Below are positions 17,326-25,919 of a stretch of 26,465 bases of DNA, one piece after another. Numbering within the stretch: the stretch's first letter is position 1; each line of letters opens with the position of its first letter. The notes below the pieces were generated by a model. The model was given only the letters and a program-made list of their open reading frames with translations, was not told the DNA's origin and made no database searches. The position numbers were made by a program, and so were the translations under genes. The stretch comes from a bacterium (GTDB lineage: Bacteria; Patescibacteriota; Minisyncoccia; Phycocordibacterales; UBA10002). The DNA lies in assembly GCA_030648695.1 (NCBI GenBank), contig JAUSHG010000036.1:1-26465 (forward strand). The letters run 5' to 3'.

Positions 17326-17752
17326 TAGCTTCTTAGCTGATTAGCTTTTTAGGGAAGAAATCATCTTGTTAAGCATTCGCATCACTTCAAGAAGCAAGCT
17401 GTCAATTTTTTGCAAATCTAAACCCTTTCCCCAAGGCAAGCGACGTACAATTTCAAGCTGGGTTTCCAGTTCAGCTCCGGAACCGTAAGCAATTAATAGG
17501 AACTGACAAAACTCCTTTTTTCCTCCGCGACGCCTTCCTTCTGCAATGTTAGAGGGGATAGAAACTGAGGCGCGTTTCATTTGCGACGAAAGTCCGTACA
17601 GTTCACTTTTCGGAAATTGCTCAGTAAGGGCATATAATTCAATGACGGCGTCTATACCTTTCTGCCACACGATTAATTCTTTATATGAATGTATTTCCAT
17701 CACGGTTTTTTAATTTCCCTAATAAGCTAAAAAGCTACCAGCTAATAAGCTA
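17326..17752 (-). mobile_element. Filled inverted-arm element A (AGCT family) carrying a four-helix-bundle gene
   Basis: Arms 17326-17352 and 17727-17752 are near-perfect inverses. Mobility is inferred, not shown. Confidence 0.6.
17341..17700 (-). CDS. Four-helix-bundle protein (23S rRNA IVS-encoded / Avd-like family)
   Basis: SYKELIVWQK, FPKSELYGLSSQMKRASVSIPSNIAEG, AYGSGAELETQL. Confidence 0.92.
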   Translation of the reverse strand: MEIHSYKELIVWQKGIDAVIELYALTEQFPKSELYGLSSQMKRASVSIPSNIAEGRRRGGKKEFCQFLLIAYGSGAELETQLEIVRRLPWGKGLDLQKIDSLLLEVMRMLNKMISSLKS

Positions 17753-21620: not shown

Positions 21621-21693
21621 AGCTGGAAGCTTATTAGCTGGTAGCTTTTTAGCTTTTTAGAAATTTCCTAACAAGCTAATCAGCTACAAGCTA
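21620..21693. repeat. Empty AGCT-family element (cargo-less counterpart of elements A and B)
   Basis: agcttattagctggtagctttttagctttttag-aaattt-cctaacaagctaatcagctacaagcta. Confidence 0.9.
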
Positions 21694-23511
21694 TTGGTTG
21701 CCTTCGGCTGCTTTCAGCTCTGCCTTCGCCGCTTTGATGGCGAGCAACTGCGAGGGGTCGGAGGTGATAATTTGGTCTTCGGTGTAGGAGGCGATAACTT
21801 TGATTGCCACGTGTTTGAGACCTACAAAGAAGAGCCCCTCTCCCACATCGGACTCAAGAAGCAGAAATTTTTCTTCGTCCGTGAGATTGAAAATCTGCTG
21901 GAGACGGTCTACGACCGTTGGCGATTGTTTGAGAAGTATCTGCATGGAGGAGTTGGTGAGAATGGGAAGCCCGTAGGGGGATTTGAGGAAGTCGTCCACG
22001 TCCTGTGTAATCGTGGCAAGACCGAAATAATATTTGCGGCCGCGTTTGGCGAGCCCGAGCAGGAAGGAGGCCGTATCTTCGCTCTTCATGAGCCACCACG
22101 CCTCGTCAATCACCATGAGGCGCTTTTTGAGCTCCCGCCGGATAGCGTTCCAGATAAAGTGCGTGATGAGGTACATGGCTGCGGGCTTGAGCTCATCTTC
22201 CATGTCGCGGAGGGAAAATACAATCAAATTGGCATTGATATCAATATTTGAGGGTTGGTTGATGAATCCCGCCCATGTTCCGCGTGTGTATTTGGACAGG
22301 CGGGTAACGAGCGACTCCCCTCCCCGCATGCCGGCGAGTACCAGTTCAAAGTCGGAGAGAAGCGGCGGCGGAATCTTTGCAAAATCAGAATCGGCGGTAA
22401 TGTCTTTGAGTGCGTAGGTTTCTGTTATAGCGCGGTCAATAATCGCATCTTCTTCGGGAGACAGTCCTCCGAGCATAATGCGGAAAAGCCCGACCAGATT
22501 GATGATGTTTGAGCGCAGGACGTCGGTGGGCGACTCATCTTCGCGCGGAGTCGGAAGTTCAAAGGGGTTGATGTGGTGGGATGAGTTGAGTGAAATGTTG
22601 AAGTATTTACCGCCTACGGCTTCGGCCAGATATTCATACTCGCGTTCGGGGTCAAGCACGATAACGTCAGTGCCAAACATGAGTGAGCGGAGAATCTCCA
22701 GCTTCATCATGTAGGATTTACCCGCGCCCGACTTGGCGAACACCACGGAATTAAAGTTTTCAAGCGAAAAGCGGTCAAAGAGAACGAGGGAAGCATTGTG
22801 CCGGTTGATGCCGTAGAGCACCCCTTTGTTTGAGGTCAGGTCAAAGGAAACAAACGGAAAGACACTTGAGAGGGGCGAGGAGTTGAGTTTGGTATGCACC
22901 AGAAGTTCGTCGTTTCCGAGGGGCATGGTACTCCTAAAGCCCTGTTCCTGCTGGAAGAGCGCGGGTTTGAGAAGCACGAGCTTGGCATCCAAAATGCCGC
23001 GCACCTCGGTTTCCACCTTTTCAAGCTCGGTTTCGTTGTCGGCGTAAATCGTAACGTACATTCCCACTTCAAATATCTTTTCATTGGCCTGCATGAGGTC
23101 ATCGCGCAGTTTTTCCAAATCCTGATACGCAGTATCGAGCGCAGGGTCGCGCACGATGCCCTTGTGTTCGCGTTCAATCATCTGGCTTTGTACCTCTGCA
23201 ACCTTCTTCTGGAATTTACGCAGGACTTTGCCGGTATCAAGCGGATGAATGAAGATGGAAATATCAAACACTTTGTCCAGATTGATGACCGGAGCAAACC
23301 AGCCCTCCGTGAGGTAGCGCGGGTAGGAAATGACGAAAAAGGTGCGGGTTATTTTTCCGCTCACATTGAGCGACTTCGGCGTTACCTTAAGCGCAGCAGG
23401 CGCAATAACATCCTGCAGTTCAAGGGCGCCGGATTGGTAAATCTGCTCGGGCAAAAAGTCCGAGATGTCATCCTGCTTCTTTTTTGGTTTTAAAAAATCC
23501 AATATGCCCAT
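21691..23511 (-). CDS. VirB4/TraE-like ATPase
   Basis: Walker A AKSGAGKS, VLDPEREY, INPF, Walker B MVIDEAW, KRGRKY, TQDV. Confidence 0.92.
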   Translation of the reverse strand: MGILDFLKPKKKQDDISDFLPEQIYQSGALELQDVIAPAALKVTPKSLNVSGKITRTFFVISYPRYLTEGWFAPVINLDKVFDISIFIHPLDTGKVLRKFQKKVAEVQSQMIEREHKGIVRDPALDTAYQDLEKLRDDLMQANEKIFEVGMYVTIYADNETELEKVETEVRGILDAKLVLLKPALFQQEQGFRSTMPLGNDELLVHTKLNSSPLSSVFPFVSFDLTSNKGVLYGINRHNASLVLFDRFSLENFNSVVFAKSGAGKSYMMKLEILRSLMFGTDVIVLDPEREYEYLAEAVGGKYFNISLNSSHHINPFELPTPREDESPTDVLRSNIINLVGLFRIMLGGLSPEEDAIIDRAITETYALKDITADSDFAKIPPPLLSDFELVLAGMRGGESLVTRLSKYTRGTWAGFINQPSNIDINANLIVFSLRDMEDELKPAAMYLITHFIWNAIRRELKKRLMVIDEAWWLMKSEDTASFLLGLAKRGRKYYFGLATITQDVDDFLKSPYGLPILTNSSMQILLKQSPTVVDRLQQIFNLTDEEKFLLLESDVGEGLFFVGLKHVAIKVIASYTEDQIITSDPSQLLAIKAAKAELKAAEGNQ

Positions 23512-23946
23512 AGCTTGTAGCTTCTTAGCTGGTTAGCTTTTTAGGGAAGAAATCATTTTGTTAAGCATCCGCATCACTTCAAGAAGCAAACTATCAATCT
23601 TCCGAAAATCTAAATCTCTTCCCCAAGGCAGACGACGAACGATTTCGAGCTGCGTTTCTAGTTCTGCACCCGAACCATAGGCAATTAGCAAGAACTGACA
23701 GAATTCCTTTTTACCTCCGCGTCGCCTTCCCTCCGCAATGTTTGAGGGAATAGATACGATGGCACGTTTCATCTGGGATGCAAGTCCGTACAACTCACTT
23801 TTGGGAAATTGTTCAGCAAGAGCATATAGTTCAATTACACCTTCTATACCCTTCTGCCATACGATTAACTCTTTATACGAGTGTATTTCCATAACAATTT
23901 TCTTTATTCTTTCCTAATAAGCTAAAAAGCTACCAGCTAAGAAGCT
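23511..23946 (-). mobile_element. Filled inverted-arm element B (AGCT family) carrying a four-helix-bundle gene
   Basis: Arms 23519-23544 and 23922-23946 form a 25-bp stem with one bulged base. Mobility is inferred. Confidence 0.6.
23533..23892 (-). CDS. Four-helix-bundle protein, paralog of 17341-17700 (110 of 119 aa identical)
   Basis: Direct alignment of the two translations shows 9 substitutions. Confidence 0.92.
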   Translation of the reverse strand: MEIHSYKELIVWQKGIEGVIELYALAEQFPKSELYGLASQMKRAIVSIPSNIAEGRRRGGKKEFCQFLLIAYGSGAELETQLEIVRRLPWGRDLDFRKIDSLLLEVMRMLNKMISSLKS

Positions 23947-24590
23947 GTTACTGGGTGTTCGGTTTCCCCGGGATTAAACAATTTGTAAAACAACTCAACC
24001 ACCTCTTCGGTGCCGAGCTGTGCCACGCGCACGCCGGTGCGCACGAGCCCCTGCTCCACCACCGACACCCTCTGTTCAAGCTGAATCTTGTGTTCCTCAA
24101 ACCCCCTGTTCCCGCTTCCCTCCGGAGCCGATTGTTTCCCCGGAAGCATCCGGCTCAATTGCGCGCCGATTTTTCCCCCGCTTTCCGAAACCTGCAAAAT
24201 GGCCGGTGTGTAGGGTACCACTACGAAAAAGAGCTTGTTCATGATGTTGGTGTTCTCGGTGAACTTCCGGATAAATCCGATATATTCCTGCGTCTGGATT
24301 TTGAGCAGTTCATTGGTCTGTTTTCCAAGCCGCTCCTGCAGAAACTCCAAATAGGGTTTGACATCAAACCTCCGTGATTCCACGACAATCTGCACCGAGA
24401 AATCCAGCGCGTTTAAAAAACTCTGGAACTGCGCAATGATGGCCTGCTGGTTCTCTTCGGACTTGAGTGCAAAGTTGATGGAGGAGGCCATGAGTACAGC
24501 CCGAAGACCGCCGTCTTTGAGGATGACGATGCCGTCCCGAATTTCCCTTATTTTGACGAAATCCTGCGATGCTTTAGCTTTTATTGGCAT
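23937..24590 (-). CDS. Conserved VirB4-associated protein (typical partner between PrgI and the ATPase)
   Basis: SQDFVKIREIRDGIVILKDG, SSINFALKSEENQQAII, FQSFLNALDFSVQI; operon position. Confidence 0.75.
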   Translation of the reverse strand: MPIKAKASQDFVKIREIRDGIVILKDGGLRAVLMASSINFALKSEENQQAIIAQFQSFLNALDFSVQIVVESRRFDVKPYLEFLQERLGKQTNELLKIQTQEYIGFIRKFTENTNIMNKLFFVVVPYTPAILQVSESGGKIGAQLSRMLPGKQSAPEGSGNRGFEEHKIQLEQRVSVVEQGLVRTGVRVAQLGTEEVVELFYKLFNPGETEHPVTAS

Positions 24591-24599
24591 ATGAATAGA

Positions 24600-25098
24600 T
24601 ACGAGAAACGAATCAATATCCGAATAGTCCGAATGTTCCGAATCAACGAATGGATACGAATACTATTATACGTTATTTCTTTTGTTTTCGCGGGTCTAGA
24701 CGCAGAATTCTGATTGGTTTTACATAGCGACAGCGGAAATTAACAAGCAAGCCAAGCTCCACGCCGCTGGCCTGCAGGTAATTTTGAATTTGCCGGTAGT
24801 CGTTGCCTAACAGGACTCTCTTTGCTTTCAACTCCAATGCCACACATCCTTCAATGAGAAAATCTATGATATTTCCAGAATCACCGATGCGGATTTCTCT
24901 CTGATATTCAATTGATTTTTCCTTTAGTTTCTTTTCAAGGCAGTCACCATATTGTTTTTCTTTTCCATAGGGTCCTATCTCATTATGTACATCAAAACAA
25001 ATACCGGTAATATCGTAAGACAAATCCGGGTAAAGAACGTGCGGTTGTGTCTTATTCGCAGCCATTCGGATTATTCGGACAATTCGTTAATTCGGATG
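24600..25098 (-). mobile_element. Filled inverted-arm element (CGAAT family) carrying a GxxExxY gene
   Basis: A ccgaat array (24600-24663) and an attcgg array (25063-25098); 24618-24635 matches the inverse of 25063-25080 at 16 of 18 positions. Confidence 0.55.
24673..25065 (-). CDS. GxxExxY-family protein (PD-(D/E)xK nuclease-like)
   Basis: [10 protein letters not shown] (variant of GxxExxY), [33 protein letters not shown]. Confidence 0.88.
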
Positions 25099-25502: not shown

Positions 25503-25919
25503 TAGTTATAAGTTAGAAGTTTGTAAGTTATAAGTTCTTTCTAAGAAAGCTGACATATCCGCTTATCATTTTTATCAACTCAACATGTCTCTCAATAATT
25601 TCCCCATTTTTGTAGAATTCCTTTTCAAGGCATACCTCAAGATTTCGTCTCGTTTCCTCTGCTTCGCATTTGGCAGTATCATTTATTATTCGTATTTTTT
25701 CCTTGATGGACTGTTTATTATACGCTTCGGCGATATTGTTAGTAGTAGAGGATGAAGACCTCCGTAACTGGTCAACGCTTCTATACTTTTCGTCCTCAGG
25801 GAATTGCTTTGTTAAATGGAAAACCTCAAGCTCCAATTCTTTTGCCCGCGTATATATCTTTAAATTTTCAAGACCCGTTGCCATAACTTACAAACTTAAA
25901 ACGTATCAACTTTCAACTA
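25503..25919 (-). mobile_element. Filled inverted-arm element C (AACTT family) carrying a divergent four-helix-bundle gene
   Basis: aagtttgtaagttat (25517-25531) is the perfect inverse of ataacttacaaactt (25883-25897), within longer degenerate arrays. Confidence 0.55.
25528..25884 (-). CDS. Four-helix-bundle protein (divergent member)
   Basis: LENLKIY, FPEDEKYRSVDQLRRSSSSTTNNIAEAY, KCEAEET. Confidence 0.85.
   Translation of the reverse strand: MATGLENLKIYTRAKELELEVFHLTKQFPEDEKYRSVDQLRRSSSSTTNNIAEAYNKQSIKEKIRIINDTAKCEAEETRRNLEVCLEKEFYKNGEIIERHVELIKMISGYVSFLRKNL

Follow-up and report, generated by a model that had tools for sequence, protein, structure and literature searches.

An intervening-sequence-like PF05635 cassette between a conserved stop codon and the virB4 start codon in a Patescibacteria secretion operon: a candidate harm-limiting insert

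Introduction

Contig JAUSHG010000036.1, analysed here over its full 26,465 nucleotides (nt; the window), carries a minus-strand type IV secretion operon in which an insert of about 0.4 kb, element B, separates the stop codon of a conserved upstream gene from the start codon of virB4. The question raised by this locus is what such an insert does to translation across the junction. The original prediction, made from the window's sequence, held that the arms of element B fold into a stem that brings stop and start close together and so preserves translational coupling across the insert. The comparisons described below, which cover the junction in relatives, homologous loci across Patescibacteria and hairpins throughout the host genome, point to a cassette resembling the intervening sequences (IVSs) of 23S rRNA, whose helix may limit the harm of insertion at the RNA level.

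Results

Anatomy and predicted fold of element B

Each arm of element B is an array in which 8-nt units with the palindromic core AGCT follow one another. Minimum free energy (MFE) and centroid folding of 481 nt around the element both draw the predicted 25-bp stem with one bulge: positions 23946-23932 pair with 23519-23533 at 15 of 15 positions and 23930-23920 with 23534-23544 at 11 of 11, with one bulged base between the two runs. The predicted arm-arm duplex has an energy of -42.6 kcal/mol, the outer 15 bp have a mean pair probability of 0.96, and the stem closes a 377-nt loop containing the PF05635 cargo gene. Past the helix strand, the 5' arm continues with one extra 8-nt unit followed by a short inner helix.

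The upstream open reading frame (ORF) ends within the 5' arm in gct tct TAG (23945-23937), as had been claimed. The stop codon (TAG, 23939-23937) had also been placed at the very start of this arm; it is indeed in the arm, but it lies 7 bp inside the helix rather than at its edge and pairs with 23526-23528 across it. Similarly, the 3' arm does adjoin the virB4 ATG, but its last unit, ACAAGCT (23518-23512), which abuts the start codon, is unpaired, and the ATG (23511) is located 8 nt beyond the stem. The proposed closeness of stop and start despite the insert was borne out by the fold: 425 nt separate the two codons along the linear RNA, and the pairing partner of the TAG is 15 nt from the ATG. 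This ATG (23511-23509) is the true virB4 start, since homologues from 58 genomes can be aligned from the first residue on.

In the sense direction, the 5' arm presents TAG in every frame and the 3' arm presents TAA in every frame. The cargo matches PF05635 over its full length (1-106 of 106; E 4.8e-33), its last codons and TAA stop fall in the 3' arm, and this stop lies 21 nt upstream of the virB4 ATG. All the features of an IVS-like PF05635 cassette are present in element B, namely an ORF in the loop, a closing stem of at least 20 bp and arms of tandem 7-9-nt units. Element B has no rRNA match and is located between two protein genes, not in an rRNA helix, and an Rfam search returned chance-level matches only and no known RNA family.

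The same junction in relatives

Comparison of the junction was possible in 46 genomes in which both the upstream gene and virB4 were readable, and the two are adjacent throughout this bacterial order. In 27 of these genomes the stop-to-start distance ranges from -14 to +15 nt, typically TAA followed by 1-7 nt and ATG, without a Shine-Dalgarno sequence. The distance is about 40 nt in two others, while a gene-free hairpin of 67-176 nt is found in seven and a cassette of 425-599 nt in ten, and the junction is therefore filled in 17 of the 46. The cargo of these cassettes is PF05635 in five, PDDEXK_3 in four and GIY-YIG in one, and their arms belong to several unrelated families. In its native state, the virB4 gap has the classical geometry of translational coupling, and element B has replaced a stop-start spacer of 1-15 nt, filling exactly that gap.

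The well-supported branches of the VirB4 tree require at least 6 changes of junction state and parsimony places 12-14; the junction has been filled repeatedly and independently. The virB4 gap is a recurrent landing place, because the same junction is empty, hairpin-bearing or cassette-bearing among relatives. Three relatives from the genus (L002, L006 and L010) have an extended helix in which the stop codon pairs with bases overlapping the ATG. In L010 (G005:C93), a PF05635 cassette with TCCGAA-type arms is nested in the loop of an outer, older hairpin of the TACCAAT type, and in the sister genome L006 the same outer hairpin position encloses a PDDEXK_3 gene.

A separate observation concerns the GIY-YIG gene that precedes virB4 in one relative (L016:1026-1316 and flanks): TGTCATTCCCGCG...GCGGGAATGACA hairpins lie on either side of it. 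Gene-free copies of this hairpin are present in the host genome of element B (G000) at C15:6332, C25:6160, C67:4746, C85:23 and C87:5795. The arrangement is similar to that of Ssn nucleases, for which a pairing with their own repeats has been published.

Homologous loci across Patescibacteria

The survey of cargo homologues covered 78 Patescibacteria loci encoding a B-type protein (51-75% identity), 76 of which have inverted arms, with a core that nearly always contains TAG. The cargo is in the sense orientation relative to both neighbours in 60 of the 72 loci with two called neighbours, and an antisense cargo inside a co-directional pair was found in only 3 loci (p about 9e-15). Across the B-type loci, the upstream ORF runs into the 5' arm by a median of 3 nt, the median distance from the 3' arm to the downstream start is 3.5 nt, and the cargo stop precedes that start by a median of 27 nt. 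Such flush arm geometry recurs in 60 independent related loci. Since it recurs across the B-type loci and at junctions within the host genome, flushness with stop and start is a property of the family and not an accident of element B.

Hairpins and cassettes elsewhere in the genome

The genome contains 181 long inverted repeats, compared with 14 in a Markov control; this excess, together with the arms at 76 of the 78 homologous genes, places the arms of element B beyond chance. All eight cassette genes of the genome (seven PF05635 and one PDDEXK_3) lie between inverted arrays, whose units are 7, 8 or 9 nt long and have different cores. A census by an array-partner method, which replaced an earlier, too strict MFE-based census, revealed about 110 periodic-arm hairpins, of which 90 are empty (loop <150 nt), with 3 of 214 in a shuffle control. 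Periodic hairpins occupy 59 of the 377 co-directional junctions, and the median length of spacer remaining beyond the arms is 15 nt there, versus 70 nt at junctions without a hairpin.

Element B has a sister cassette in the genome, element A, whose cargo paralogue (17341-17703) has 92% protein identity to the B cargo. The arms of A and B are identical at 33 of 34 and 37 of 39 positions, compared with only about 83% DNA identity between the ORFs, and their stems differ by one wobble and one mismatch, with zero double changes. A, B and an empty copy have arms in common, and the other AGCT hairpins differ in unit order. No direct repeat indicative of a target-site duplication flanks A or B. In contigs from DNA runs, the assembly breaks at the arms, with joints to other empty hairpins.

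Two other explanations of the hairpins were rejected. A transposon or a MITE (a miniature transposable element with inverted repeats) would fit poorly with the lack of a target duplication and of a transposase and with a cargo that belongs to PF05635. Intrinsic terminators were dismissed on the grounds that the A/T-rich arms have no U tract and that periodic hairpins occur at only 5 of 78 convergent junctions.

Two further repeated hairpin families, non-periodic and with several copies each, were noted in G000: CCAAATGATTGC/GCAATCATTTGG and TATACCCCGTGCCACAAT/ATTGTGGCACGGGGTATA, on contigs C3, C14, C37, C66, C81 and C27, C46, C79, C82, C87. A perfect 71-bp palindrome lies at a contig end (G000:C30:2777-2918) and is possibly an assembly artefact.

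Genomic setting and neighbouring features

The window is one entire contig of a 584-kb, 91-contig groundwater genome bin of Patescibacteria (candidate phyla radiation, CPR). Pfam matches place a type IV secretion operon with a PrgI-like gene and VirB4 on the minus strand at 17.3-26.4 kb, and a type IV secretion system (T4SS) locus of this kind has been described for Patescibacteria (PMC12102498). Besides element B, the operon holds three further cassettes and a cargo-less hairpin (Table 1); the latter sits between the virB4 stop codon (21693-21691) and the ATG of the following gene (21620).

Table 1. Features of element B and of the surrounding operon in the window
Feature	Position	Strand	Remarks
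Sister cassette, element A, PF05635	17326..17752	(-)	
Cargo-less hairpin, AGCT arm family, inverted orientation	21621..21693	(-)	-31.8 kcal/mol, z -4.7
virB4-like ATPase, 606 aa, Patescibacteria-type T4SS	21691..23511	(-)	TraG P-loop and AAA_10 matches
Element B, 3' arm, nnAGCTAA units	23512..23551	(-)	paired strand 23519-23544
Element B, cargo ORF, 119 aa, PF05635 (23S rRNA intervening-sequence protein, four-helix bundle)	23533..23892	(-)	
Element B, 5' arm, AGCTnnTT units, period 8	23905..23946	(-)	helix strand 23946-23920
Upstream gene, 217 aa, no Pfam match	23937..24590	(-)	conserved virB4 partner; synteny in 46 genomes
PDDEXK_3 (GxxExxY) cassette, CGAAT-type arms	24591..25098	(-)	next junction upstream
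Third PF05635 cassette, AAGTT-type arms	25503..25919	(-)	directly upstream of PrgI-like gene

A second hot spot lies upstream of the PrgI-like gene, at a junction filled in the window (25503-25919) and in the relatives L032, L033, L038 and L045; the PF05635 cassettes found there differ in arm cores by species (AAGTT, TAGCT, TAGGC and others). VirB4 itself is broken by an in-frame insert of about 2 kb in three relatives from the genus (G001:C1:64619-68404, G013:C6:11789-15574 and G015:C21:3701-7204), whose open frames span 1186-1277 aa and in which about 2 kb separates the matches to the two query halves. This insert could be an intein or another in-frame element.

Discussion

Does the helix couple translation?

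The claim that the fold preserves coupling fared unevenly: the tight native junction and the flush geometry of the arms speak for it, whereas the arguments drawn from Shine-Dalgarno sites and from G·U pairs did not hold. On the linear mRNA, the stop-start distance lies outside the overlap or roughly 25 nt that characterizes coupled pairs, while in the predicted fold the two codons are close, also when a ribosome occupies the stop. When folding was constrained so that a ribosome footprint at the stop stayed unpaired, 17 long-range pairs were predicted to survive, since the repeats can pair anew in a register moved inward by one unit; the ATG then lies 21 nt from the residual helix, on single-stranded RNA beside the ribosome. 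The absence of a Shine-Dalgarno site before virB4 could be read as a sign of dependence on coupling. This argument was dropped, as such sites are not enriched before starts in the genome as a whole (64 of 565 genes versus 55 of 565 in a control window); the 3' end of the 16S rRNA is absent from the assembly.

Several observations weigh against a role of the helix in keeping virB4 translated or are neutral on it. Helices maintained as RNA would tolerate G·U pairs over A·C mismatches, yet among 100 hairpins the sense strand has 96 of the former versus 101 of the latter, and stricter mismatch rules gave 44 versus 46 and then 26 versus 18 (p 0.29). Empty hairpins are mostly imperfect, with at least 88% Watson-Crick pairs in only 11 of 77, and the stems look like palindromes that were freshly templated and then drifted neutrally, not like helices kept by selection on RNA. 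Between A and B, conservation is higher in the arms than at synonymous sites of the cargo, which points to sequence-specific recognition or gene conversion and not to pairing alone. Hairpins are also present at nine divergent and five convergent junctions, and flush ends would arise automatically whenever a palindromic element lands in a gap of 1-15 nt. Because the whole genome is without a Shine-Dalgarno signal, the missing ribosome-binding site (RBS) before virB4 is uninformative on dependence on coupling, and because the cargo stop lies 21 nt before the ATG, an ordinary linear relay of ribosomes through the cargo is possible. The nearest analogues of the element are RNase III substrates or translation barriers, which argues for roles other than coupling. 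Moreover, neither an enzyme nor a target duplication accounts for the insertion; the sequence occurs only in groundwater DNA runs and in no RNA run, and contigs from the DNA runs yielded no usable empty-site allele of the element B locus and are uninformative in this respect. Taken on the sequence comparisons, coupling is partly supported, as a reasonable hypothesis with several equally good rivals.

The favoured reading and its rivals

We judge the chances to be about even that element B is an IVS-like cassette that limits harm and whose helix is of consequence at the RNA level. According to this reading, it is one copy of a self-folding cassette family spread across Patescibacteria, in each member of which a gene for a PF05635 four-helix bundle is enclosed by inverted arrays of stop-containing 7-8-nt repeats, and the family is the same kind of element as the ORF-bearing IVSs of 23S rRNA. 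The cassette would be transcribed within the operon mRNA, where its harm may be limited in three ways: the 5' arm provides a stop within two codons of the insertion point, all three frames of both arms contain stops, and the predicted 25-bp helix would loop out about 380 nt. With the arms zipped into this helix, the host stop and start would come to lie about 15 nt apart at its base, and we infer that the helix thereby makes the insert tolerable. Most likely is a mix of three routes, in which a ribosome ending the upstream gene unzips the helix and exposes the region before the virB4 start, ribosomes are passed on via the cargo, or RNase III cuts the helices that are left untranslated. A stricter version, in which the helix itself hands over the ribosome, strikes us as quite improbable. 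Here the periodic arms would act as a register-shifting zipper: as the ribosome opens the outer repeats, the inner ones would pair again one unit deeper, the strands would stay tethered, and the ribosome or a subunit would cross the helix base to the downstream start, as a bacterial counterpart of ribosome shunting.

Cutting by RNase III may instead be the main function of the stem. If element B is excised at the RNA level as in rRNA IVSs, the 25-bp helix would mainly be an RNase III site, cleavage would free the cargo RNA, the upstream mRNA would keep its stop, and virB4 mRNA would be left with a leader of about 10-20 nt and initiate independently, the flush geometry keeping stop and start outside the excised part. 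The homologous IVS stem of Coxiella is cut by RNase III (PMC4990558), and Correia hairpins in Neisseria mRNAs are bound and cut by the same enzyme (PMC2649163). All 21 genomes of the genus have an RNase III gene, although the ORF in this bin (G000:C78:6467-6893) is cut short near a contig end, with only about the first 93 residues matching; the predicted fold of element B offers a long, near-perfect double-stranded RNA, and the strong sense bias of the cargo fits excision as well. Independent initiation is in any case the norm here, because the genome uses no Shine-Dalgarno sites. On the other hand, every ribosome finishing the upstream gene would melt the RNase III substrate, because its stop is 7 bp deep in the helix; the cargos have intact, conserved ORFs, whereas the excised ORF of Coxiella is unexpressed and decaying, and the stems have no excess of G·U pairs. 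We regard excision as the chief role of the helix as possible but doubtful. As a separate matter, a periodic hairpin lies directly upstream of the RNase III ORF at G000:C78:6467-6893.

An origin of the geometry at the DNA level seems unlikely to us. The arms would then serve as termini or recognition sites for a DNA element that moves or recombines, possibly with the cargo protein as their reader, and the RNA hairpin and the juxtaposition of stop and start would follow automatically, with no role in translation. The symmetry of G·U and A·C mismatches and the conservation of arm sequence in A, B and the empty copy beyond the needs of pairing are what such an element would leave. Arm motif also tracks cargo clade, B-type cargos having TAG-core arms in 76 loci and other cargos other cores; turnover and nesting occur at the same virB4 junction, and Ssn GIY-YIG nucleases are framed by repeats that they cut (PMC11893778). 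Nevertheless, a 60:3 sense bias would be unexpected for a purely DNA-level element unless its expression needs read-through, stops in three frames and ends flush with stop and start look like adaptation to translated surroundings, and neither a target-site duplication nor a known transposase was found.

Significance

New here are the series of states at one junction, the nesting of a cassette inside a hairpin, the sense bias of 60:3, the flush fit to stop and start throughout the family, and the negative G·U test. If the helix does keep translation flowing over a 0.4-kb insert, operons would offer mobile DNA a hiding place of a new kind, and the 7-8-nt repeat arrays of many bacteria, long unexplained, would acquire a purpose. 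The zipper, if real, would explain how thousands of hairpins and cassettes are tolerated in the tightly coupled operons of Patescibacteria, which are free of Shine-Dalgarno sites, and why the arms consist of repeats rather than unique sequence. Regardless of mechanism, the junction is a natural experiment, being empty, hairpin-only or occupied by one of three unrelated small-gene families within one order. The series shows that IVS-like cassettes are gained and lost at stop-start junctions of essential operons, and it supplies defined constructs for distinguishing RNase III processing from coupling.

Comparison with known systems

In the open-access literature searched, no bacterial precedent was found for ribosome transfer across a helix base or for helix-mediated coupling, and PF05635-type cassettes were found described only for rRNA. 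The nearest analogy to transfer across a helix base is ribosome shunting in plant pararetroviruses.

The closest known relatives are the 23S rRNA IVSs of Coxiella and Leptospira, which, like element B, have a PF05635 ORF in the loop, a long closing stem formed by inverted flanks and tandem repeats beside the ORF, of 7 nt in the IVSs. The helix 45 IVS of Coxiella burnetii comprises an S23p (PF05635) ORF, a closing stem and tandem heptamers and is cut by RNase III (PMC4990558). Unlike these, element B resides in an mRNA operon between protein genes, its arms have stops in all frames and abut stop and start codons, and its cargo is intact, whereas the Coxiella ORF is decaying. Intergenic arrays of the TAACTGA heptamer, found in Beggiatoaceae, some cyanobacteria and Bacteroidetes, likewise place stops in three frames, often end 1 nt before a start without an RBS and sometimes overlap the upstream stop (PMC4679880). 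However, they are mostly direct and have neither a partner arm nor cargo, in contrast to the inverted pairs of element B that enclose a gene. Correia repeats (Correia repeat enclosed elements, CREE) and other hairpin MITEs share with element B their inverted-repeat structure, location in intergenic spacers and co-transcription (PMC2649163); in Correia elements the terminal repeats are fixed, TA is duplicated and an ORF is lacking, whereas the elements described here have combinatorial arrays, no duplication and an optional small gene. The attC hairpins of integrons, which are formed by recombination sites, also lie between co-transcribed genes; they impede downstream translation, and termination-reinitiation at a short ORF within the hairpin can lift this block (PMC8876359), but attC is an integrase substrate and no integrase is present here. 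Finally, classical coupling has the geometry of the native junction of the relatives, TAA-n-ATG or an overlap of 4 to 14 nt, and relies on overlapping or near-adjacent codons on the linear mRNA, whereas in element B the codons are 425 nt apart and only the predicted fold would bring them to a spacing of about 15 nt.

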